Part shown: piece after piece, positions 1,315-63,686 of the stretch | How the letters are laid out: each line of letters begins with the position of its first letter | Position numbering within the stretch: position 1 is the first letter of the stretch | Notes under the pieces: generated by a model | Database searches by the model: none | What the model saw: only the letters and a program-made list of their open reading frames with translations | What the model was told of the DNA's origin: nothing | DNA from: a virus | Taxonomy: Duplodnaviria > Caudoviricetes | Reading direction: 5' to 3' (one strand) | Length of the DNA stretch: 64,000 bases | Virus record (IMG/VR): IMGVR_UViG_3300049595_005065 | Position numbers and translations under genes: made by a program

Positions 1315-2958
1315 ATGGCTCTGGAAATTGGCAGCCTGTCGGAACTCGATAGCGGCAAGATCGACGCGATGTTCGCGACGTTTACGCAACTTATGCAGGA
1401 GCGCCACCCCGAGGTCGAGCTGACCCGCGGCGTCTTTCATGACCTGGTCGTCTATTTCAACGCGGCCCTGAACGCCTCGGTTCGGGAAAACATCGACCGG
1501 GTGCTCGCCAGCAACAGCCTGCTCTCCATCTCGACCAACCCCGAGCTGGCCAACGACACCCTGGTCGACAAAGTCCTCGCGAACTACAACCTGACCCGCG
1601 ACACGGGCAAGCAGGCCGTGGGCGAAGCGACGCTGGTGTTCAATTCGGACACCCAGACCACCATCCTGGAAAGCATCGTCTTCTCGGCCGACGGCATCCA
1701 GTTTCAGCCGACGCAGACGTTCACGGCGCTGCCCACCGGCTCGATTCCCGCCGACGACAGCCAGCGGGTCATGATCGCCGCGGGCGACGGCTCGTACGTC
1801 GTGAACATCCTGCTGCGCGCCGTTGCGGTCGGTGTTGCCGGTAACATCCGCCGGGGCACCAAGCTCGTTCCCGACAACATCATCAACAACACGGCCCAGG
1901 CGTTTGCCGCCGTGGATTTCATCAGCGGCGCCGAGCCGCTCACCAACGCCGAGTACCTCAGCAAGCTCTCGGCGGGGCTGGCTTCCAAGGCGATTGGCGG
2001 GCGGCAGAACTACATCGCTCAGATCCGCAACCAGGCGGCCTTCACGAATATCCCCCATTTGTCGATCCTGGGCTGCGGCGACGTCGAGCAGCAGCGGGAC
2101 CAGCACAGCCTGTTCCCCATCTCCGGCGGCGGCAAGATTGATATCTATGCCCAGACAAACCACGACGCCCAGGAGCAGGAGCACACGCTGGAGGCCGTCT
2201 ACGTCGGCCCGGGTCAGTCCGGGACGAGCTGGCAGGTCGTGCTGGACCGCAACACGGCGCCGGGCTTCTACGAGGTTGTCCGCATCGCCAAGCCGCTTGC
2301 TCCCAACGAGACCGGCTACGCGATCACACAGGACATCCGAAACTTCGACCTCTCGGACCTCGATTTCATCCCGGACGTCGTCAGCGTGCCCGAGGCGGCC
2401 TACACCCGCTACCAGACGGCCGTGATCCGCTTCGAGGACACCGACACCCAGCCGGGCACCCTGGTCCCCCAGACGAGCCGGGCAATCTACTCGGTCACGA
2501 CGACCGGCCTGCCGCTGATCGACGAGCTGCAGGATTACATGTCCGACCGGGACGTCCGCAGCCGCGCCGCCGACGTGCTCGTGAAGGCCGCCGTCCCCTG
2601 TTTCACAAAGATATCTTTCGAGATCCGCAAGGGCGCCAACGACCCGGCGATCGACACGGCGCCGGTCAAGACCGCACTGGTGGCCGCCATTCGGGAGATT
2701 GGCTTCACCGGGCAGCTCCACGCCTCGACAATCTCCGGCGTCGTCCACCAGTTTCTCTCGGGCCGCGCGGCGCTGGGGGCGATTGACATGTTCGGCCGCA
2801 TCCGCCGTCCGGACGGTTCGATCCAGTACGTTCGCGACAACACGCTCCTTCAGATCCCCAACGACCCGACGCGCCTGGTCACCGGGCGCACCACGGCGTT
2901 CCTGATCGGCGAAGAGGACATCGAGATCTCCTTTGTCGCCGCGGGCTTCACGAACTAG
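1315..2958 (+). CDS. baseplate J-like wedge protein (T4 gp6/P2 gpJ family)
   Basis: 547 aa; A.G.ATL.F motif, AVAVGVAGNI (the G..GN motif of Baseplate_J), GAEPLTNAEYL. Confidence 0.8.
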   Translation: MALEIGSLSELDSGKIDAMFATFTQLMQERHPEVELTRGVFHDLVVYFNAALNASVRENIDRVLASNSLLSISTNPELANDTLVDKVLANYNLTRDTGKQAVGEATLVFNSDTQTTILESIVFSADGIQFQPTQTFTALPTGSIPADDSQRVMIAAGDGSYVVNILLRAVAVGVAGNIRRGTKLVPDNIINNTAQAFAAVDFISGAEPLTNAEYLSKLSAGLASKAIGGRQNYIAQIRNQAAFTNIPHLSILGCGDVEQQRDQHSLFPISGGGKIDIYAQTNHDAQEQEHTLEAVYVGPGQSGTSWQVVLDRNTAPGFYEVVRIAKPLAPNETGYAITQDIRNFDLSDLDFIPDVVSVPEAAYTRYQTAVIRFEDTDTQPGTLVPQTSRAIYSVTTTGLPLIDELQDYMSDRDVRSRAADVLVKAAVPCFTKISFEIRKGANDPAIDTAPVKTALVAAIREIGFTGQLHASTISGVVHQFLSGRAALGAIDMFGRIRRPDGSIQYVRDNTLLQIPNDPTRLVTGRTTAFLIGEEDIEISFVAAGFTN

Positions 2959-2968
2959 CAGGTAAGCG

Positions 2969-4549
2969 ATGGCCTCCTTCCTCTATCCTGGATCGGATCT
3001 CGACCGCGGTCGCGTGCTGCTGTCCGTCCTGGGCAGCTTCTGGGCGCGGACCTACACCGCCGTCGACCAGGTGCGCTCCTACACCGCGGCCACGGCGCAG
3101 TCGGTGGCGCAGTCTCAGCGCAACTTGCTCGAGACGGCGGCCGCGCTAAGCCGCTTCGAGGTGCCGCTCTACCACACCGAGAACTGGGTGCCGATCCCGC
3201 TGCGCAAGAGCGAGATGAACACGGGCCTGGTGGGCGTGGCCCGGTTCGACGACGGGCTGGTCACCTTCAATGATTACCGGAACTCGTTCGACCGCCCCAC
3301 GGCCCGGAACACCTACGCGTTCCCGCGCCCGGAGAAGATGGCGGGCGCTGCGCAGATTTTCAACAAGCTGCTGTTTCCCACGGTGGGCCTGGCTGAGGGC
3401 GTCGATTACCTGTTCGACCAGCAGCGCGATGCCATCATCTTCGCCGCCGACCCGTTTGAGCGGCCGGACTTTCACAGACGCATCATCTACGAGAACGCGC
3501 AGCCCGTGGACGAGGAAATCACCGTCTGGGCGTTCCAGGGCCGCTTTGACTACGAGTACGTCTTCACGCAGTTTGCCTACGCCCTGGGCATGCGCCTAAA
3601 AACCAGCCAGGGCTTCAAGGACTTGATGAACGCCGTGATCGACGGCCTGGTGAACGGCGGCGCCACGGCGCTCGACCTGGACCTGGCGCTGTCGGCGATC
3701 ACCGGCGTTCCAGTGGTCGTGGAGCCCGAGGAGACCGTGGAGGTCGTGCAGCTCGACGCCCGCGGACTGTTCATCGCCACGGACAAGAACGTCTACCGCT
3801 TCCCCGAGGCCGCCACCCCGGTCGTGGCCGTAGGCGACCGTGTCCGAGCGGGCCAGTCGCTTGTCGACGCGCTGCAGATCGTGTCCCTGGGCGGCCGAGT
3901 TCCCGAGGAGGTTGCCGCACTGGCGCTGGACGAGGGCTACCTGTCGGCCTGCTTCTACGGCGACCTGGTGTTCGAGAACAAGGCACTGCCGCTCATCGTC
4001 GATACGAACCACCCGAGCGGGTACACCTACGTGTCATTTCCGGTGGGCGGGTTCCCGGCCGACGTCAAGCAGTTTTTCGACGAGATCCACGAGCGCGGTA
4101 TCTGCGCCGCCGAGTGCGACCTGGGCGACTGCAATCCGGCGCTGCGGGCCAAGATGGGGACGCTGGCGCAGGTGCTGGATCGACGGGCGCAGCCCAGCGG
4201 TGAACCCAACGCCAGCCATTTGCCCGCAACGATCAACCCGTTGCAGTTTATTGCGGCGAATATCTTGCGAAACAACGTCTTTTTGGTGCGTATCAAGTCG
4301 CCCTCGTTGGGACAAAATAGGCTCGGTTTATACAATATCAGACACCTGCGTCAGCTCCTGCCGCCCCAGTCCGCCATGATCGTGCTTTACGAAATTGGCG
4401 GCATTCGGGACGCGGTCAGCGGCGCGGACAATGTAACGACCAGCGCGAGCACGTTTACGGGAGCCGAACCGCTCGCCGACGCGGTGACCGAAAACATGTT
4501 GCGGGACGCCGGAGCGACCGCGCGGACGCTATCTGGGACGTGCCAATAA
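2969..4549 (+). CDS. baseplate wedge protein (gp7/P2 gpI-like position)
   Basis: 526 aa immediately after the J-like gene; assignment by synteny only. Confidence 0.5.
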   Translation: MASFLYPGSDLDRGRVLLSVLGSFWARTYTAVDQVRSYTAATAQSVAQSQRNLLETAAALSRFEVPLYHTENWVPIPLRKSEMNTGLVGVARFDDGLVTFNDYRNSFDRPTARNTYAFPRPEKMAGAAQIFNKLLFPTVGLAEGVDYLFDQQRDAIIFAADPFERPDFHRRIIYENAQPVDEEITVWAFQGRFDYEYVFTQFAYALGMRLKTSQGFKDLMNAVIDGLVNGGATALDLDLALSAITGVPVVVEPEETVEVVQLDARGLFIATDKNVYRFPEAATPVVAVGDRVRAGQSLVDALQIVSLGGRVPEEVAALALDEGYLSACFYGDLVFENKALPLIVDTNHPSGYTYVSFPVGGFPADVKQFFDEIHERGICAAECDLGDCNPALRAKMGTLAQVLDRRAQPSGEPNASHLPATINPLQFIAANILRNNVFLVRIKSPSLGQNRLGLYNIRHLRQLLPPQSAMIVLYEIGGIRDAVSGADNVTTSASTFTGAEPLADAVTENMLRDAGATARTLSGTCQ

Positions 4550-4558
4550 GGGAGTATC

Positions 4559-5203
4559 ATGGCCACGGACAAGATTGGAGCAAACGGTTCGGGTGTCCGG
4601 GGGCACGTCACGCTCTGGAGCGTCGACGAAGCCAGCGGCCTGCTCACGCCCCTGCACAGCCAGAAGAACCAGATCGTCCTCTCCTGGGGGCACATCGCGG
4701 CCCGGCAGCTCGGCTTTCGCCCCGGCGCCGGACGCCCCAGCTACCACATCTCGGCGATGTACATCGAGTACGAGAACGTGGGCGACCCGGAGGACCCGGC
4801 GACCGTGGCTTCACTGGGTCGGGACCTCGACCCGGATTACTACTACGGCGAGTTGCTCAGCAGCTCGACCCAGGGCTTCATCCGAGTGCCGCTGCGGACC
4901 GAGCCGGTTCTGGGCGTCTCCACGGTGACCGAGGGCGACTACCCCGGCTACTTCACCGAAGGGACCAACGGCAACCAGCTCACATTCTTCGCCCAGACGT
5001 CGAACGCCGAGGTACAGAACGCTGTGCCGTTTGGCGCCGCCTACAACAGCAAGGTGTACGCCGCAGCGCTGGTGGCCACGCCCGAGTTCTCCGACCACAC
5101 CCAGGACATCGTCTTTGCGCGCACGACCTTCTCGGCCCCCAACCAGGTCACCAAGGAAGCGTCCTCGCAGATCGGCATCACCTGGGACATCGCCTTTGAA
5201 TAG
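4559..5203 (+). CDS. baseplate/tail-fibre attachment protein
   Basis: 214 aa; KNQIV...VFARTTF...VTKEASSQIGITWDIAF resembles baseplate/tail-collar proteins of large phages. Confidence 0.5.
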   Translation: MATDKIGANGSGVRGHVTLWSVDEASGLLTPLHSQKNQIVLSWGHIAARQLGFRPGAGRPSYHISAMYIEYENVGDPEDPATVASLGRDLDPDYYYGELLSSSTQGFIRVPLRTEPVLGVSTVTEGDYPGYFTEGTNGNQLTFFAQTSNAEVQNAVPFGAAYNSKVYAAALVATPEFSDHTQDIVFARTTFSAPNQVTKEASSQIGITWDIAFE

Positions 5204-5210
5204 TCGTTAA

Positions 5211-5249
5211 TTCACACGGATGTGTGAAAGCCTGGGAGGACACGGATGT
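5211..5249 (+). promoter_or_regulatory. putative tandem CsrA/RsmA binding sites overlapping the RBS and start codon
   Basis: ACACGGATGT at 5214-5223 (in hairpin TTCACAC-GGAT-GTGTGAA) and again at 5240-5249 over the ATG; SD GGGAGGA lies between them. Confidence 0.6.
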
Positions 5250-7141
5250 CCAACAGCAACTGGTTCAACAACATCAAGCATGTCACGCCGGGCGAGCCGG
5301 TCAACGCGGGCGTCGTCTCGCGGCCAGACCAGGCGCTCGTCAGCCGCACGAACTATCTCAAGGAACGGCTCGATGCTGCCGCCCTGAATAGCGCGCTGTT
5401 CGACACCGACGCCACGGTGGCCTCCGACGTCCTGCCCGGCCAGCCGGTCTTCTGGAACGCCCAGACCCAGCAGTACGAGAAGGCGCTGGCCGGTGCTGAG
5501 ATCGAGCCCAACACGCAAGTCCCGGTGACGATCCCGTCGAGCGACGTCCTGGGCATCTGTTATCGCAAGAAGTCCGCCACGCTGGCGGATATCGTGCTCC
5601 GCGGCATCGTGCAGCTGCCCGAGATCACCAACGCCGTTGCGGGCACGGTCACGCCGGGCCGCTACTACCTCTCCGCCACGGAGCCGGGCAAGCTCGTCAA
5701 GCAGAAGCCGCCCGTGTCGGTCAACGTCTGCTTTGTGCAGGGCGTCAAGGAAAACTGCGCCGAAGCGCCCTGGGTCGTCGTGATGCCGCAGGTCCGGGAC
5801 TTCCTCGAGGATCACATCCACTACCGCTTTGAGCTGACGGCCCTGCCTGCGGGCGAGCACGACGGCACGACGGCCGCCGAGGACGGCTTCCACACGATCA
5901 CCGACGCCGACGCGGAGCTGCCGGGCTGGCTTCCCGCCGACCACGCGGTTTTCGAGGGCCGCGCGCCGACCGGCGCTAAGTTTGGCTACAACTTCTCCCA
6001 GCACGAGGCGCTTTCGCTTGTCTGGCCGCCGCAGCCGCTGCAGGCGGTGGCCATGCTCTGGGACAAGGGCATTAACCGCGTTGGCGCCACGGAGATCCCG
6101 CTAGGCGCCGAGGGCCTGTGCGTCGTCAACAAGGACGGCATCTGGTGGATGAGCGACTGCTACGCCAACGTGCCGTGGCCTGCGGATCTCGACACGGCAG
6201 ATCCAGGTTCGGAAAGCTCGCTGCCCGAATGCCCGCTGCCCGAGAGCATGCGGGTCGTCATCGTCTACCTGCGGATGCTCTACGGCAATGACCGCAGCGT
6301 AGTGACCAGCCTCAAGCCCGCAGAGGGCAGCCCGATCACGGTGGTCAACTGCGACGGCCTCCCGGCGAACGCGGACAACGCGCTCACCGGCGACCTGGAG
6401 CTGGGACTGAACCTTGAGCTGCTGGACGATCCCACCGAGGTTAACGGCGGCCGGGTCTACAAGCAGATCACCGAGGACTTCAAGTTTCGCAAGGGCTGGA
6501 TCACCGAGGGCGTGCGCCTGGGCGGCGGCCCGCTGGTGATCAGCGGCACGCGCAGCCGTGTGCTCACTGCCGCCGAAAAGACCGCGCTGGAGCTGCCGTC
6601 CAACGACACGTCGCTGCTCCACCAGGGCCTGGTCACCATCGCCTACGAGGACCAGCTCGTTGAGCGCGAGATCTCCCCGCAAATCATTCGCCTGGCCGAC
6701 ACGGTCGAGCGGCTTTACAAGGACATCCCGTACCTGGGGTTCCCCGAGAACTACAACTCGCTGCTCCGCGTCCGGCTCAACGTGCCCAGTTCAAACCTGG
6801 GCGCGCAGCTGGAGATGAAAGTCCGGGTGCAGCTGTTCGGTCGCACGACCGGCCTACTGCCCGCCATGTCGATGACCTACCGGCGGATCACGCGGCCCAC
6901 GACCGCCGCAGTGCCGCTTCCAACGGCCGACGACGAGTACGAACTGGCGTTCAACGTTCCCGGCACATCGCTTGCCGTGGACACAGTGGTTGAGGTCGAG
7001 AGCGAGGCGTTCTGCGTCAAGGAGGGCGACACGATCCTTGTCACGCTGGCGCGCAGCGGCACCGCGGACAGCTACAACGCTGAAGTCGGCATGCTGCGCA
7101 TGACCGGAGTGGTGACTGTATCGTCCACATGCACGGAATAA
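5246..7141 (+). CDS. virion structural protein (tail/baseplate)
   Basis: 631 aa, beta-rich, strong SD, within the structural operon. Confidence 0.6.
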   Translation: MSNSNWFNNIKHVTPGEPVNAGVVSRPDQALVSRTNYLKERLDAAALNSALFDTDATVASDVLPGQPVFWNAQTQQYEKALAGAEIEPNTQVPVTIPSSDVLGICYRKKSATLADIVLRGIVQLPEITNAVAGTVTPGRYYLSATEPGKLVKQKPPVSVNVCFVQGVKENCAEAPWVVVMPQVRDFLEDHIHYRFELTALPAGEHDGTTAAEDGFHTITDADAELPGWLPADHAVFEGRAPTGAKFGYNFSQHEALSLVWPPQPLQAVAMLWDKGINRVGATEIPLGAEGLCVVNKDGIWWMSDCYANVPWPADLDTADPGSESSLPECPLPESMRVVIVYLRMLYGNDRSVVTSLKPAEGSPITVVNCDGLPANADNALTGDLELGLNLELLDDPTEVNGGRVYKQITEDFKFRKGWITEGVRLGGGPLVISGTRSRVLTAAEKTALELPSNDTSLLHQGLVTIAYEDQLVEREISPQIIRLADTVERLYKDIPYLGFPENYNSLLRVRLNVPSSNLGAQLEMKVRVQLFGRTTGLLPAMSMTYRRITRPTTAAVPLPTADDEYELAFNVPGTSLAVDTVVEVESEAFCVKEGDTILVTLARSGTADSYNAEVGMLRMTGVVTVSSTCTE

Positions 7142-7144
7142 GCC

Positions 7145-8092
7145 ATGCCGATCGGGAACTGGAATCTACAGTGGCTTAACCACAACTCGCAGCGCTCCTA
7201 CCCGCTGACCGAGCGCGCTACCAAAACAGACGAACAGGGCACGATCCGGCTGCCCGACAGCTTCATCGTTGCACTCTACCTGCCGGTGCATGCGGGTCTG
7301 GGCCTGGAGCCCGGCAAGTTCTTCGTCAAGAGCGTGCTCATCGCGCCCACCGGGTACAACGTCACCATCGGCTACGACGACGGCGACGAGTACCCTGACG
7401 TCGCCGCGGCGAACATCGCCCGCAGCGCCTTCGCCCCGAACCGCTCTTTTGCGCTGCCCGGCGTCGACCAGTTCGTGGACTCACTGGGCGAAATCGTCAT
7501 TGGGCGCCTCGACGAGATCGACGCCCTGCCGCCTGGGCTGTACGCGTTCACGCCCGCCGCCGGAGAGCTGGAGACGGACGCCATCCGCCCGATGATCCGC
7601 GGCATTCCCCGGCTGCGGGTCGCCAACGGCTTCGAAATCAGCGAGGACATCTACGGTGACGTGACGCTGGTGGCGGGCGCCAACATGCGCATCACGGTGG
7701 AGAGCAGCGGGGGCTCCGACCCGCGGATCACCTTCAGCGCAATCAACGGCGAGAACCTGAACAAGAATTGCGAGTGCCAGACGCCGCGTACCGGAGAGTG
7801 CATCCGCTGCATCAACAACGTCTGCTCGGACGACGGCAACTTCACGTTCGACCCGGGCGACTGCGTTGAAATCGTGGGCACGCCCGGCGGCCTGCGCTTC
7901 AACGACCTCTGTGCCCAGCCCTGCTGCGGCTGCTCCGAGCTGGAGGCGCTGGCCACGGAAGTTGACCGCTTCAGCGACGGCGTGAACACACTTCAAAACT
8001 TCGTGACCCGGTTGAGTTCCGAGGTCACCCAGATGTCCCTGGTCGTACTGGGAAGCCGCCTTGGCGACACCGGTTGCAGCACCTGTAACTGA
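7145..8092 (+). CDS. Cys-rich structural protein, paralog 1
   Basis: N-terminal QWLNHNSQRSYPL, internal GDVTLVAG and INNV..DDGN, Cys-rich C-terminus. Confidence 0.65.
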   Translation: MPIGNWNLQWLNHNSQRSYPLTERATKTDEQGTIRLPDSFIVALYLPVHAGLGLEPGKFFVKSVLIAPTGYNVTIGYDDGDEYPDVAAANIARSAFAPNRSFALPGVDQFVDSLGEIVIGRLDEIDALPPGLYAFTPAAGELETDAIRPMIRGIPRLRVANGFEISEDIYGDVTLVAGANMRITVESSGGSDPRITFSAINGENLNKNCECQTPRTGECIRCINNVCSDDGNFTFDPGDCVEIVGTPGGLRFNDLCAQPCCGCSELEALATEVDRFSDGVNTLQNFVTRLSSEVTQMSLVVLGSRLGDTGCSTCN

Positions 8093-12019: not shown

Positions 12020-12973
12020 ATGCCCCGTCCAGGTTTCTACAACGACAACGAATACCGCGCCTACCCTTTCGTTTTTCGGACGAGCTATCCGGGGCCTGCG
12101 CTGCCGGACGCCGCGATCGTAGACGCCGGGCTGATCATGGGCCTGGACAGCGGCTACAACCCCGCCGAGCACAGCGTCTGGCTGTCCTCGATCTCCAGGG
12201 CGGGCGGCGTGCTGACGTTCACCTTTGCGTCCGACGCGCCCGGCGCAGCGACTCAAAACCTCTCGTTCGTGTGCAGCACCGCCGCGGAGGAGTGGCTGTC
12301 TGTGTTCGGCGAATCGGGCGTGATCGCCGGTGTTCCCAGCGCGTGCGACCCGGCGCCCATTTGGGAAGGTTTTCTCGTGGTCGGCGCGCTGGCGACGCTG
12401 CTGGAGCAGATCGCAGACAACTCAACGGTCACGTACCCCAGCCAGGCGCGCGTCCTCGAGCCGGGTCGCGTGCAGAGCCTGCTGAAGGGCTACCTGCGCA
12501 GCGTCAACGTGGGAAACTTCACGCGCGTCCGTGCGCTGCCCGCGCCAGAGTGCGACGACAGCTCGACCGCGGTCGACGAAAATGAAGTCGTCGTGAATGC
12601 CACGTGCATGCAGGGAAACATCCGTGTCAAGGAAGGCTACCACTGCCGCATTCGGCAGATCGAGCGAACCAACGAGATCAACATCTCCGCGGATCGCACC
12701 GCGGGTGACACCGAATTTAGCCCGCTGTGCGAGCACGGTGGAGACCTGCCCCTTTACGATGACGAACCGTTTGACGCAGCCACTGGTTTCTATGGCGGCG
12801 GCCCGGCGTGCAACCAGGTAATTTCTGCCATCAACGGCATCGGCGGCCCCAACGTTTCGCTGATTGCGGGGACGGGCGTAACAATCACCACCAACCCCAC
12901 GGATAAGACCATTACCATCGCGCTTGCGCAGAACAACCTCGTGGGTGGTTGCGGGACGGAGGCTGGGACGTGA
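12020..12973 (+). CDS. structural protein, paralog 5
   Basis: [12 protein letters not shown] and [11 protein letters not shown] motifs. Confidence 0.65.
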
Positions 12974-15534
12974 TGACCGGACCTGTCGATCCCATTTTCG
13001 ATCCGAACAAGTGCGGTTTGGGCCCGGTCCCCAAGCCTCCGGTGCAGTTCGTCATCGATTGCAACATCGATGAGCCGCCGCCGCCGATCTTCGACTGCGA
13101 ACCGCCGAGCATTCCGCGCGAGCCGCCACCGCCGCCGTGCCCCGAGTTCACCGGCGAGGTCACGGTCACCGCCGCGCCGCAAACCTGCTCCGGACCCAGC
13201 GAGCCTTCCGGCGCTCTGCTGATCACCAAGGTAGACAACGACCCGTGCCGCTTTTCGATTGACCTAGACCTGGACATTCCAATTCCGCCCGCGCCGTGCC
13301 CTGAAATCAAAGAGGGCGAGGTTACGGTCAACGTTGGTTACGCCGGAACAGGTGCTGGGTGCGTTTCTGAGGCTACCGGCGCCATTATTATCACGCCGCT
13401 TCCCGAAACTGATCCGTGCAGCGACAGCGATGAACCAAGGTGCCAATTCCAGATCGATCTGAACCTGGACATTCCGATCCCCCAGCCGGTGTGCCCCGAG
13501 ATTAACGAAGGCACGGTCAGCGTCAACGTTGGCTACAGCGACTGCGTGTCCGGCGCCAGCGGCGGGTTCACGATCACCAAGAACGAGATTGAAGGAGACT
13601 GCAACACTCCGCCGACCTGCTCGTTCACGATCGACCTGGATTTGGACATCCCAATCCCCAAGCCGGTGTGCCCCGAGATTAACGAAGGCACGGTCAGCGT
13701 CAACGTTGGCTACAGCGACTGCGTGTCCGGCGCCAGCGGCGGTTTCACAATTACCAAGAATGAGACCCCCGGAGATTGCGACACTCCACCGACCTGCTCG
13801 TTCACGATCGACCTGGATTTGGACATCCCAATCCCCAAGCCGGTGTGTCCAGAAATCAACGAAGGAACGGTCAGCGTCAACGTTGGCTACAGCGATTGCA
13901 TCTCGGGCGCTAGCGGCGGGTTCACGATTACCAAGAATGAAACCCCTGGAGATTGCGACACCCCGCCAACCTGCGATTTCACAATCGACCTAAACCTGGA
14001 CATCCCGATCCCCAAACCGGTGTGTCCGGAGATTAACGAAGGCGCGGTTAACGTTAACGTCGGCTACAGCGATTGCGTGTCGCAGGCAAGCGGTGGTTTC
14101 ACGATCACCAAGACGGAAACGCCGGGTGACTGCGATACGCCGCCGACCTGCTCGTTCACGATCGACCTCAACCTGGACATCCCGATTCCCAAGCCGGTTT
14201 GTCCCACGTTCAAGGAAGGTGCCGTCAGCGTAAACGTCGGCTACGACGACTGCGTGCCGCAGGCAAGCGGTGCGTTTACGATCAGTAAAACCGAAACAAG
14301 CGGCGACTGCGACACTCCACCCACGTGCGAGTTCACGATCGACCTTGACCTGGACATCCCGATTCCCAAGCCGGTTTGCCCGACATTTTCCGCATCGGGC
14401 ACCATTGCTTTTGGCGCGCCATCCATCTCCGTCAACGGAAACGTCAACTCAACGCCTGGCGACTGCGACACGCCGCCGACGTGCGACATCACGCTGGGCG
14501 TGGATGTTGTTGTTCCCAACCCCGCGTGCCCCGTCATCAGCGGCGCGATCAGCGTTTACGAAGCAGAAGAACCTACCGGCACGGTTACCGTTACCAAGAA
14601 CGAAGGTCCCAGCGGCGCGTGCGAATTCAACATTGAAATTGATATTGGGGTGCCCAAACCAAAGTGTCCCGAGATCAGCGGTTCAATCAGCGTTTATGAA
14701 ACGGAAGAAGAGCCAACTGGCACTTTTTCTGTTACTAGCGGTGAAACAGCGAGCGGCATTTGCGAATTCAACATTGAGATCGCCATCGGGGTACCCAAGC
14801 CGTCGGGCGTCACGGGCCCCACCGGCCCCAGTGGCCCGAGCGGGCCTAGCGGTCCTTCTGGACCTAGCGGCGCAAGCGGGCCGAGCGGCCCTTCCGGACC
14901 CAGCGGCCCTAGCGGTGTCGGTGGTGCTACAGGTCCAAGTGGACCTAGCGGACCCAGTGGTCCGAGCGGCCCTCAAGGTCCGAGCGGCGTGGATGGCATC
15001 CCAGGCGCTACAGGTCCAAGTGGACCTAGCGGCCCTCAAGGTCCGAGTGGCGTGGATGGCATCCCAGGCGCTACAGGTCCAAGTGGACCTAGCGGCCCTC
15101 AAGGTCCAAGCGGCCCAGAAGGCCCTAGCGGCCCCAAGGGCGACCCCGGCGAACCAGGACCGTCTGGCCCTGGCGGCCCCAGTGGCCCGCAAGGCCCCAG
15201 CGGCCCAGCAGGTCCAAGTGGACCAAAGGGCGACAAGGGAGACACAGGCGACCCCGGGCTGCCCGGACCTAGCGGTCCCAAGGGCGACAAGGGAGACACC
15301 GGCCCCAGCGGCCCGAAGGGCGACAAGGGCGACCAGGGCGACCCAGGCGCGCCTGGTTCGTCTATTGTGGGCCCACCCGGGCCGCCAGGGCCGCCTGGGC
15401 CGAGCGGGCCGAAGGGCGACAAGGGCGACCCGGGCGACGACTGCGTCAAGGTCCCGGTGACCGTGCTGACTGGCATGTCGTGTTCCGGCGGAAACTTGAT
15501 TGCAGACACGACGACCATCGAGGTGTGCGAGTAA
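12973..15534 (+). CDS. collagen-like tail fibre protein with 59-aa Cys/Pro repeats
   Basis: ATG overlaps the upstream TGA (TGATG). Contains the PVCPEINEG...[15 protein letters not shown] repeats followed by a long G-X-Y tract. Confidence 0.8.
13484..14368 (+). repeat. 5 x 177-bp in-frame tandem repeat, with degenerate copies on both flanks
   Basis: A(G/A)CCGGT-type unit starts at 13484, 13661, 13838, 14015, 14192 and 14369, an exact 177-bp period. Confidence 0.95.
14806..15441 (+). repeat. collagen G-X-Y repeat (about 70 triplets; GPS-rich, then GPKGDKGD)
   Basis: Seen directly in the translation. Confidence 0.95.
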
Positions 15535-22647: not shown

Positions 22648-22678
22648 CGCGCTTGTGTGAAATGCCAGGGAGGGCAGT

Positions 22679-23218
22679 ATGAGTTGCGACCAGTCTTCGT
22701 CCTACGGCGGCGCGATCGATCTGAACGAGACGATCGGGATCAACTTCTACGCCCCCGATCCGCCGGTCACGCCGCCCAACGGCAGCGGACGGCGCATCCA
22801 GCTCACCTGGAGCGTGAGCCGTTACTACTTCCACGGCACTGACGGCGTGCGGGTGCGCATCGAGGCGGCCGAGGCCGCGCTGATGCCCGACAAGGTCTTC
22901 GCGTATTTGCTGCTCCCCATGAAGCCCGCGGCCGGTGAGCGGGAGGGCGCGTTCAGCCACATCTGTTCGCCCACCGACCTGGCCGAGTATCCCGAGGACG
23001 ATCCGCTTCCAGGCGTCCGCCCGGAGTTCTTCCGGCTCAACTACGTCGACGTGCAGCTCCGCTCGCGCTCCGAGGCCAAGGCGTTCATCCAGGATGTCTG
23101 CGACGACGTGCAGCGCCTCAAGAACACACTCGACCTCATGGACACGCTGCAGACCGGCGGCTCGCTTTGGATCGGCGGCGCACCTGCCCCCGACGTTTCC
23201 TCCTCGGAGAGCCTGTGA
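22679..23218 (+). CDS. hypothetical (probably structural) protein
   Basis: 179 aa, SD GGGAGG, ends in SSSESL. Confidence 0.7.
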   Translation: MSCDQSSSYGGAIDLNETIGINFYAPDPPVTPPNGSGRRIQLTWSVSRYYFHGTDGVRVRIEAAEAALMPDKVFAYLLLPMKPAAGEREGAFSHICSPTDLAEYPEDDPLPGVRPEFFRLNYVDVQLRSRSEAKAFIQDVCDDVQRLKNTLDLMDTLQTGGSLWIGGAPAPDVSSSESL

Positions 23219-24878: not shown

Positions 24879-25353
24879 GGAAACCTCCGAGAACCAGGAA
24901 CTAACCGTAACGCTGGCCAGTCTAGCGCCGATTCTGAAGCTCGACAAGTTGCAACTGCGCTCGGCGGCCCGCGTTTACAACTACGCCGACGAAAGCGCCG
25001 CCCTGCCCAGATTCGTCACCCTGCGGTTGCTTCTGACCGACCTCTTGGAGCGGCTGGCATTTTTGAAACCCAGCCAGCGCCAGGCGATTCTGGAACGATA
25101 CGATCAGGACATCGACGACAACCAAGACCAGTGGGAGACCCTGGCTTTCGCAGACGGCAACTGGGTCACCTGGACCGGCCATTACGGCTGGCTGGACTTA
25201 ACAACCGGCGACGTCGTGACCGCTCTCCCCGACGCTCCGGTGGAGACCATTGGGTACAATCTGGTGACACTGCATCACCGGGCGATCGCCCAGCTCAGGA
25301 AAAGGATTTCCGATGGCCAAGAACATTCTGCAGGAAGCGTGGACCAGCCGTGA
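24877..25353 (+). CDS. hypothetical protein
   Basis: 158 aa; alternative ATG at 24865. Confidence 0.7.
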   Translation: METSENQELTVTLASLAPILKLDKLQLRSAARVYNYADESAALPRFVTLRLLLTDLLERLAFLKPSQRQAILERYDQDIDDNQDQWETLAFADGNWVTWTGHYGWLDLTTGDVVTALPDAPVETIGYNLVTLHHRAIAQLRKRISDGQEHSAGSVDQP

Positions 25354-25987
25354 AACTTTTGCGACGGTCCTCCTGACTCTCTTCCTGGACCGCTTCGGCA
25401 TGGAGGCCCTCGACTGGGACCCGGCCACCGTCACGCTGGAGATAGAGGAAGAGTTCGACGTCGATCTGCCGCGGCTGAGCCTCGACAAGCTCATGGTGGC
25501 AATTCAAATCCTGACCACAGACCGTTTTCACAAGTCGCTCCCCGACTTCGTGGAATTCTGCAATGTACTAGGCGGCGACACCTACAGCCCCCAGACGTTT
25601 GACCCGGCCGACGCCGAGGAGGTCGCCTGGGGGATCACCGAGAGCATGCTCATCGCCCCACCGGACGACGCGGACACCGAGCCGTTCAGCGACGAGATCC
25701 GGGCCTACATCGGCGCCGTGCTCGACCAGGAAGGGATTATCAACGCCCCTGACGTCCTGCGGATCGCCCTGCGCCGCGCGCGCATCTCGCCGTCAATCGA
25801 GGACTTCTCGGACGACCCGGAGATGTTCAGCGCAGTTTACGGGCTCGAGTCCGCGAAGACCGACGAGATAAATCAAACTATCGTCACGAAGACGCAGATT
25901 CTGGCCGCTCAGCTAGCGGCGCTGCAGCTTCAGAACGGAAACACTCAATCAGTCGCCAAGATGCTGCATGACTCTGTGCAGCGCTAG
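25313..25987 (+). CDS. conserved phage hypothetical protein
   Basis: 224 aa acidic globular ORF with typical codon bias. Confidence 0.75.
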   Translation: MAKNILQEAWTSRETFATVLLTLFLDRFGMEALDWDPATVTLEIEEEFDVDLPRLSLDKLMVAIQILTTDRFHKSLPDFVEFCNVLGGDTYSPQTFDPADAEEVAWGITESMLIAPPDDADTEPFSDEIRAYIGAVLDQEGIINAPDVLRIALRRARISPSIEDFSDDPEMFSAVYGLESAKTDEINQTIVTKTQILAAQLAALQLQNGNTQSVAKMLHDSVQR

Positions 25988-26002: not shown

Positions 26003-26206
26003 ATGCTCGTCCTTTCTCGCAAGAGGAACGAGAAACTACTCATTGGCCACGACGTGAAGATTACGGTCGTCGAGATATTGCCCGATCGGGTTCGCTTAGG
26101 AATCGAAGCGCCAGAGCAGGTGAGCGTGGTGCGCGCCGAACTGGCCAAGAACTGGCACGGCCGCAAGAAGGCCGGAGAAAATGGGGTGGAACGACCGCCT
26201 GCCTGA
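26003..26206 (+). CDS. csrA: carbon storage regulator CsrA/RsmA family RNA-binding protein
   Basis: MLVLSRKRNEKLLIGHDVKITVVEILPDRVRLGIEAPEQVSVVRAEL is the canonical CsrA signature, including the R.E motif near position 44. Confidence 0.95.
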   Translation: MLVLSRKRNEKLLIGHDVKITVVEILPDRVRLGIEAPEQVSVVRAELAKNWHGRKKAGENGVERPPA

Positions 26207-26495
26207 CTGTGAAGCAGGCTGGCCCACAGAAGAAGAGCGCCAGTCATTCTTCGACTGGCAGGAATATCAGCATTATTGCGCGATGCTCGACGCGGAAATC
26301 GAGCGCGAGTCTGCGCCGCCTGTCCCCGAACGGATGGGCATCTCTTCGCAGACCATTGACCCCGACAGCTTCGAGGGCCTGTCCAAAGATATCTATTCAG
26401 ACCGCCCCCTCACACCAAAGGAGTTTGCCCATGCCCGCAACCAAGACCAAGGCCAAGACCAAGACCAACACCAAGATCAAGGCCAAGAAGAATAG
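26181..26495 (+). CDS. hypothetical acidic protein
   Basis: SD GGAG; overlaps the csrA end and the start of the next gene. Confidence 0.55.
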   Translation: MGWNDRLPDCEAGWPTEEERQSFFDWQEYQHYCAMLDAEIERESAPPVPERMGISSQTIDPDSFEGLSKDIYSDRPLTPKEFAHARNQDQGQDQDQHQDQGQEE

Positions 26496-41464: not shown

Positions 41465-41504
41465 CGCAGGCCGCTTTTCACAGCATTAAGTGAAACATTT
41501 TCCT

Positions 41505-41537
41505 GGCGCCCCTTCTTTGAGGGCGCCCTTGTTTCTT
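41505..41537 (+). terminator. probable intrinsic terminator
   Basis: GGCGCCC...GGGCGCC stem followed by CTTGTTTCTT. Confidence 0.5.
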
Positions 41538-41643
41538 GCGTTTCACAGATTACTGTGGAACCAGATTTGACGCTGCGCACTGGAGTGCGCGGTTATCCCT
41601 CAAGCCAACCATGAAGGTTCTTTCTCGTACGCGGAGTTTTTCC

Positions 41644-63523: not shown

Positions 63524-63596
63524 TGCCCAGTAGCTCAGTTGGTAGAGCTGGCGACTGTTAATCGCCCTGTCCCAGGTTCGAGTCCTGGCTGGGCAG
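63524..63596 (+). tRNA. tRNA-Asn(GTT), CCA not encoded
   Basis: Full cloverleaf: TGCCCAG/CTGGGCA, GGCGA-CTGTTAA-TCGCC, CCAGG-TTCGAGT-CCTGG, G73. Confidence 0.92.
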
Positions 63597-63615: not shown

Positions 63616-63686
63616 AGCCCAGTAGCTCAGTGGCAGAGTCCGATATTGTATGTCGGAGGACCCAGGTTCGATTCCTGGCTGGGCGC
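63616..63686 (+). tRNA. atypical tRNA, anticodon TGT (Thr-like), possibly a pseudo-tRNA
   Basis: Acceptor and T arms nearly identical to tRNA-Asn; CCGAT-ATTGTAT-GTCGG; A1.G72 mismatch, A32, no nt 26. Confidence 0.6.

Follow-up and report, generated by a model that had tools for sequence, protein, structure and literature searches.

Can a phage that encodes the bacterial regulator CsrA use it to control the synthesis of its own particle? The question is raised by a short intercistronic region in the stretch of DNA analyzed here, 64,000 nt of a virus of the Caudoviricetes (the window). An earlier note on this DNA had drawn attention to the sequence ACACGGATGT, present twice in front of a gene for a 631-aa protein, and had proposed that CsrA of the phage or its host binds both copies and gates the translation of a virion protein. 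We have examined this proposal by comparing the window with related phages. The 631-aa protein has 493 homologues, all of them unnamed, and 79 viral loci together with 8 close metagenomic loci were compared. A metagenome scan with the 631-aa protein alone returned only 4 loci.

A hairpin at the start codon of a tail-module gene

The two copies of ACACGGATGT are found on the + strand at 5214-5223 and 5240-5249, 26 nt apart. Reading along this strand, the stop codon of the 214-aa gene is followed after 7-8 nt by a hairpin (hairpin 1), a short spacer, the Shine-Dalgarno (SD) sequence and the ATG at 5246 (Table 1). The earlier description of this layout was accurate in its particulars. The first copy lies in the loop region of a 7-bp hairpin, as confirmed by RNAfold, the second spans the ATG (5246-5248) of the 631-aa ORF, and the SD sequence GGGAGGA is located between them. 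What was absent from that description is that the second copy is itself a hairpin (hairpin 2).

Table 1. Features of the window discussed in the text
Feature	Position	Strand	Remarks
Baseplate wedge neighbor	1315-2958		phrog_6
Upstream 214-aa gene	4559-5203	+	Stop codon 5201-5203
Hairpin 1, intercistronic (site 1)	5211-5228	+	TTCACAC-GGAT-GTGTGAA, 7 bp, -7.4 kcal/mol
SD sequence GGGAGGA of 631-aa gene	5234-5240	+	3' end paired in hairpin 2
Hairpin 2, conserved core element (site 2)	5238-5251	+	5' arm GGACA, loop CGGA, 3' arm UGUCC
631-aa gene, baseplate/tail-fiber module	5246-7141	+	No Pfam or PHROG family
Tail fiber neighbor	12949-15534		phrog_5073
Candidate weaker target hairpin	22663-22676	+	UGCC-AGGGAG-GGCA, SD in loop; before 179-aa gene 22679-23218
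Phage csrA, 67 aa, candidate reader of hairpin 2	26003-26206	+	PF02599, phrog_9500

The 631-aa gene lies within a run of tightly packed, co-oriented genes. Its designation as a tail gene is reasonable from the neighbors (phrog_6 and phrog_5073), but the gene itself belongs to no Pfam or PHROG family; from this context it can reasonably be regarded as a structural gene of the tail module. A model of the protein is of medium confidence (pLDDT 68.6). Its C-terminal part is a jelly-roll or CBM-like β-sandwich, for which Foldseek gave weak matches to Eph-LBD, CBM6 and Cry domains and no firm function. The window is part of an uncultured phage, and the protein is encoded on a 208-kb contig as well. 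A DNA search with positions 4000-8000 gave no match among cultured phages, and the sequencing runs that contain matching DNA are lake and freshwater metagenomes, some of which are possibly the source sample. The window also contains two tRNA genes (63524-63596 and 63616-63686; Rfam RF00005, 65.8 and 45.9 bits).

About four repeats of a 10-mer within 40 nt are expected in a random window of 64 kb, and ACACGGATGT with up to one mismatch occurs 6 times in the window compared with an expectation of 3.2. The fold of the region 5195-5275 is not unusually stable (z = -1.0 in a thermodynamic test). Because such repeats are expected by chance and the stability of the fold is ordinary, the repeat is real yet not significant by itself. 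Its weight comes from its position, its match to the CsrA consensus and its conservation. The exact 10-mer is present at no other gene start in the relative G034. A scan of 4900-5400 for promoters and terminators found nothing, and hairpin 1, which has no U-tract, was rejected as an intrinsic terminator.

Hairpin 2 has a calculated energy of -4.5 kcal/mol (RNAfold), and may alternatively be drawn with a 4-bp stem and an ACGGAU hexaloop. The A of the GGA in its loop is the A of the AUG. The hairpin takes in the last two G nucleotides of the SD sequence (5238-5239), the AUG and codon 2, and thus has the overlap with the SD sequence and start codon expected of a CsrA site that excludes the ribosome. 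Both sites present an unpaired GGA in the loop of a short stem-loop, and at site 2 covariation backs the pairing.

The consensus for CsrA binding derived by SELEX is RUACARGGAUGU (Dubey et al. 2005, summarized in PMC7652899). In the selected ligands ACA and GGA are invariant, the GGA is presented in a hairpin loop on stems that mostly do not exceed 4 bp, and AC and GU close the hexaloops (PMC7652899). The majority form of site 2 in the phages, GGACAAGGAUGU, agrees with this consensus at 11 of the 12 positions. The form found in the window, GGACACGGAUGU, agrees at 10 of the 12, and has the flanking sequence A(N)GGA(N) of a CsrA site. If hairpin 2 is drawn with the stem GGAC/GUCC and the hexaloop A(A/C)GGAU, its geometry is that of the SELEX ligand, and the stem is weak, at -4.0 to -4.5 kcal/mol. 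The phage element resembles both that ligand and RsmE-hcnA (PDB 2JPP) in its ACA..GGA..GU core, in the placing of GGA in the loop and in a stem of at most 4 bp closed by AC/GU, and it is like RsmE-hcnA in overlapping the translation start region. It differs from the ligand, which was selected in vitro, and from hcnA, which is a bacterial mRNA, in that a virion gene actually starts at the AUG of the consensus, and in a stem that is lengthened by GG/CC drawn from the SD sequence and codon 2. The octamer CACGGAUG is presumably the hcnA core.

Conservation of the two hairpins

When the orthologues are anchored at the start codon, GGAGGACA(A/C)GGATGTCC is seen to be kept in about 45 of them, down to 44% protein identity. 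Outside this element the spacer is divergent and cannot be aligned; the GGAGGA of the SD sequence is kept throughout the main clade. The orthologues that carry hairpin 2 are located in uncultured phages of ~200 kb. In the remoter orthologues both arms of the hairpin co-vary, giving GCC-AAGGAU-GGC, GCUC-AAGGAU-GAGU, GGUC-AAGGAU-GGCC and GGCA-AGGA-UGCC. The covariation was scored over five pairs in 56 distinct sequences, those lacking the element included. The score is 0.364 compared with 0.146 in shuffles, none of 500 of which reached the observed value, and slid controls gave at most 0.109.

The coding sequence is also affected. Of 36 distinct orthologues, 33 have TCC as codon 2; the other 3, in which the 5' arm is CUC, have AGT. 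In the remainder of these genes TCC is the rarest serine codon (9.7% of 1352), and codon 3 varies freely. Evidently the coding side has been bent to the structure of hairpin 2. Because the arms covary and codon 2 is constrained, we have little doubt that hairpin 2 is an RNA structure under selection, in which the NGGA loop is fixed.

The expectation that both sites would be conserved in relatives is borne out for site 2, but not for site 1. Hairpin 1 is confined to relatives above about 63% protein identity; it is missing in L138, L129, L029 and the whole of the 44-57% clade, and L139 has a different hairpin at this position (loop TGTCTGC). In the close relatives its stem is kept, with 88% of cells paired, G-U intermediates and three pairs that are changed on both sides, a count reached by 8 of 500 shuffles. 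This pattern argues for a hairpin formed in the sense-strand RNA. In the window its loop displays a second ACACGGAUGU. A GGA loop, in the form GGAU, GGAC, UGGAUU or UGGACG, is found in the window, L006, L019, L003, L034 and L136, and loops without GGA (CAUU, CUUCCC, UCCU, UUCC and CACU) in L133, L134, L135, L137 and L005. The two-site design is therefore not a conserved one: the upstream hairpin is restricted to close relatives, its loop has GGA in about half of them, and two bridgeable sites 26 nt apart are kept together in just the window and five close relatives. The earlier note took the absence of a site from an orthologue that keeps csrA as evidence against it, and this is what is found for site 1 in G001 (L005), a genome that is 96% complete and has a CsrA match with E 3e-20 beside the CACU loop. 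As judged from these comparisons site 1 fails as a conserved CsrA site, and hairpin 1 may be an optional accessory contact in this phage.

It is an even question whether the GGA of the upstream copy has any connection with CsrA at all. It could be a chance loop on a structural hairpin that serves as a stabilizer or processing signal of the mRNA. The stem is kept through G-U and compensatory changes while the loops of close relatives vary, with GGA or without, and G001 keeps csrA despite its CACU loop. Short 10-mer repeats are to be expected by chance, and hairpin 1 alone among 19 intergenic hairpins in the window has a GGA loop; a family of GGA-loop intercistronic hairpins was looked for in the window and none was found. 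On the other hand, in six distinct relatives the GGA lies ~26 nt from site 2, the spacing being constant wherever the loop of hairpin 1 has GGA, and ~26 nt reportedly falls within the range that is bridged by one CsrA dimer (Mercante et al. 2009). Free drift of the loop does not sit easily with three of the loops that lack GGA, since these carry its complement UCC, which hints at loop inversion.

Two further observations concern the sequence of hairpin 1. Among close relatives (L133-L137, L005; window 5218-5221) the loop alternates between GGA and its complement (UUCC, UCCU, CUUCCC). Small inversions of the loop could account for this alternation, as could base pairing between a UCC loop and the SD sequence. 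The heptamer TTTCACA, which makes up the arms of hairpin 1 as well as those of two hairpins at 41465-41643, occurs 16 times in the window, 13 of these on the + strand, compared with 5.2 ± 2.3 expected (none of 100 shuffles reaches 16). Examples are at 41476, 41541, 42054 and 52082 on the + strand and at 5223 and 22656 on the - strand, and several are intergenic.

Phage csrA and start-codon hairpins in related genomes

The presence of a CsrA gene in the phage is confirmed. The product of the 67-codon ORF matches Pfam PF02599 with E 6e-21 and 74.6 bits, well above the cut-off of 27. Compared with E. coli CsrA 1Y00 (E 1.7e-8), residues L2, L4, R6, V40, V42 and R44 are kept, and across 14 phage CsrA copies L2, R6 and R44 are invariant and L4 is nearly so. 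We take these positions of β1 and β5 to be the RNA-contact residues of CsrA, presumably those described by Mercante et al. in 2006. By the profile cut-off and these key residues, the ORF at 26003-26206 is a member of the CsrA family.

The element is present at this gene in 17 relatives with a completeness of 90% or more, and PF02599 was found in all 17, although the match in G022 is weak. Seven complete relatives lack the element, of which five have csrA and two (G010 and G011) do not. This is the pattern that the hypothesis predicts, whereby the element would need csrA but csrA would not need the element; the 2 × 2 test is not significant, and the co-occurrence is confounded by descent.

The sequence CA-NGGA-UG, with at least two further pairs, was sought in 11 whole sequences and in 3 incomplete ones, namely two part genomes and the window; G009, the remainder of G008 and the opening half of G021 lay outside the scan. 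In genomes with csrA it is found at 30 of 4398 ORF-start ATGs, compared with 61 of 48453 other ATGs (Fisher p = 2e-11). In those without csrA (G010, G011 and G013, two of them complete) the corresponding counts are 1 of 1375 and 13 of 14644. The contrast at ORF starts between genomes with csrA and the three without it gives p = 0.002.

The start-codon hairpins are concentrated in the distant relatives G029 (8; loci L170-L181), G025 (8; L182-L192), G023 (6; L238-L249) and G024 (4; L193-L204). The genes marked in this way include those for a tail fiber, the large terminase, an RNA polymerase β-like protein and several unknowns, together with the orthologues of the 631-aa gene and of the window gene at 22679. 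The hairpins usually come directly after a stop codon and a GGAGG SD sequence. Their arms vary (GGCA/UGCC, GUCA/UGAC, GCCA/UGGC, GUUCA/UGAAC) and they have unrelated sequences upstream, which ruled out a single copied cassette. In G029 the loop has GG in 7 of 10 start-codon hairpins, compared with a base rate of 6-9%. The pattern in these relatives looks like a lineage-specific regulon. Nearer to the window the element is sparse: G034 has CA-NGGA-UG at this gene and at one doubtful extra position, the window has it at this gene only, and G002 has a variant with a 3-nt loop. No canonical start-codon hairpin was found in G006 or G007, both of which have csrA. Clearly the CsrA of these phages also does other things.

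Hairpins with GGA loops are not enriched at ribosome-binding sites as a class (24 compared with 18.5 expected in the window, 32 compared with 45 in G034). The weaker CANGGANG matches that had been pointed out at other ribosome-binding sites are present at 22666, 42964 and 61831, but they amount to an SD sequence preceded by CA and are not above chance, CANGGANG occurring 50 times in the window where 40 ± 6 are expected. The related leader noted before 22679, TGTGTGAAA..GCCWGGGAGG, is real, and carries no hairpin at 22679. A candidate weaker target hairpin, with the SD sequence in its loop, is nevertheless located before this gene (Table 1); a like hairpin is found in G034, L140, L141 and L153 with arms of differing length, and in five distant relatives the 22679 orthologue instead has a CA-NGGA-UG start-codon hairpin.

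A candidate CsrA operator and its alternatives

From the sequence, its conservation and covariation, the match to the consensus and the co-occurrence with csrA, we infer binding, repression and which CsrA acts. The reading that we favor, with a probability of about 0.55, is that hairpin 2, placed on the start codon of a gene of the tail module, serves the phage's own CsrA as a translational operator of CsrA type, and that hairpin 1 provides a second site that is optional. A weak stem of 4-5 bp would hold the AUG and part of the SD sequence, and display A-C-G-G-A-U in the loop. A CsrA dimer would clamp hairpin 2 and keep the 30S subunit off the AUG and SD sequence, and this clamping would lower or time the synthesis of the 631-aa virion protein. 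The acting dimer would most simply be the phage's own 67-aa CsrA, possibly joined by that of the host, and hairpin 1 could give a single dimer its second contact, in the manner of the glgC and hag leaders. That second site is, on the comparisons above, a lineage-specific extra outside the conserved putative device. The low stability of the stem fits a protein-dependent operator better than a self-sufficient block; since it is weak, it should need a protein to block initiation. Of the original proposal that CsrA gates translation through these sites there remains hairpin 2, which covaries, matches the consensus and is accompanied by csrA in every near-complete carrier, but not the two-site design. 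Because dozens of related phages keep the start-codon hairpin, it is probable that a regulator borrowed from bacteria controls the synthesis of some particle proteins in these phages.

The hairpin might instead function in cis without any protein, tuning initiation down or coupling it to translation of the upstream gene, with the GGA incidental. A ribosome terminating 15-25 nt upstream would then melt the stem and set the ratio of neighboring baseplate proteins. The genes of the module are tightly packed, and in most relatives the upstream stop codon is indeed about 15-25 nt from the ATG; in the window, however, the distance is 42 nt with hairpin 1 in between, so that a terminating ribosome would not reach hairpin 2. 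While the stem does sequester the AUG and two bases of the SD sequence, at -4.5 kcal/mol it is a weak barrier. Relatives that have csrA but no such hairpins exist, as such a cis structure would allow, yet it leaves unexplained the constant NGGA loop, with GG at -2/-1 where an SD sequence cannot act, and the excess of GG loops in G029. We consider this explanation, the main rival, unlikely.

Phages often encode private translational repressors that bind start-codon hairpins, such as the MS2 coat protein and T4 RegA, and hairpin 2 might be the operator for another phage RNA-binding protein or nuclease (RegA-like, coat-protein-like or RegB-like) that recognizes a hairpin with a GGA loop. Most genes of these phages are without a known family. 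No such protein was identified, whereas every complete genome with the element encodes a CsrA that has kept the key residues. Moreover the agreement at 10-11 of 12 positions is with a CsrA consensus that was derived independently, and the RegB specificity is for GGAG, not GGAU. It seems to us improbable that a protein of this kind is the reader.

Interpreted as a CsrA operator, the locus can be compared with several known systems. As in the leaders of E. coli glgC and B. subtilis hag, the window has a GGA hairpin upstream and, some tens of nucleotides from it, another GGA in the initiation region, and bridging of two sites by a CsrA dimer is known in general (PMC7652899). The hag gene, in the CsrA-FliW-flagellin checkpoint, also has a self-assembling structural protein as the target. 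Unlike glgC and hag, the second phage site is on the AUG rather than on the SD sequence, the upstream site is not conserved among relatives, and the candidate regulator is encoded by the phage. The hag system also differs in its partners. No FliW (PF02623) was found in five phage relatives (G034, G002, G029, G025 and G023) in a search that matched the control genomes, and Pfam gave no FliW match at E ≤1 among the ORFs tested beside csrA. A partner switch of FliW type is thus not seen, and a non-homologous antagonist may be conceivable. Nor is there a known decoy RNA of the CsrB, RsmY or RsmZ type in the window, for which Rfam gives only the two tRNAs, and GGA-loop hairpins nowhere exceed 6 per 150 nt in the window, in G034 or in G029; a small decoy of a new kind could have escaped these searches. 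The proposed action of a phage protein on an AUG hairpin, shutting off another phage gene, is like that of the MS2/Qβ coat protein on the replicase hairpin and of T4 RegA. The protein folds and RNA motifs are different, and the phage CsrA is a captured bacterial global regulator.

CsrA homologues of mobile elements have been reported as rsmM-type genes of Pseudomonas phages (PMC7366521), in a survey of phage RsmA (PMC8450108) and as the plasmid protein RsmQ (PMC9928087). Knock-down of gp28, a CsrA-family protein of phage PTXU04, reduces plaque size, and the role of phage csrA in the phage life cycle is stated there to be untested (PMC11879866). The phages studied here are like PTXU04 and the Pseudomonas phages in carrying a gene of this family, but in contrast to the present case those four papers discuss the control of host genes (CRISPR-Cas, motility). 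A full-text literature search returned no paper describing CsrA sites in phage structural genes. Phage-borne csrA has been catalogued for years, and this locus offers a concrete, conserved and covarying candidate target in phage late genes. The candidate pair is small, a 14-nt RNA and a 67-aa protein, and is therefore directly testable by gel shift and reporter. If the reading is true, a virus re-uses a bacterial global regulator to self-regulate the synthesis of its particle, and a start codon embedded in the CsrA consensus would be a sequence rule for finding such regulons in other phages.

A more far-reaching scheme can be drawn, which we regard as decidedly speculative and improbable. A clade of ~200-kb lake phages would have adapted a captured CsrA to regulate the translation of its own virion genes privately, with CA-NGGA-UG hairpins as start-codon operators on one baseplate-module gene in the lineage of the window and on 4-8 late genes (tail fiber, terminase, polymerase subunit) in other lineages. 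Release would be coupled to assembly through a partner that grips the conserved C-terminal NG(L/V)ERP tail of CsrA, as a viral analogue of FliW-CsrA-flagellin.

Some features of the csrA neighborhood are recorded here in their own right. The NG(L/V)ERP tail is common to the phage CsrA copies (window 26170-26206), and the nucleotides that encode it also encode the start (MGWNDR...) of the overlapping downstream ORF 26181-26495; in one subclade CsrA continues in another frame to 96 aa. A hairpin GGAAA-AGGA-UUUCC (25298-25311) stands before the gene directly upstream of csrA, and was rejected as a further site because the nearest relative alone keeps a counterpart. The gene itself (25313-25987) encodes a 224-aa all-α protein without a known family, the model of which has a pLDDT of 52.8. 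It precedes csrA in at least 13 relatives (L081-L085, L104-L110 and L114), with a mean column identity of 85% compared with 54% for CsrA.
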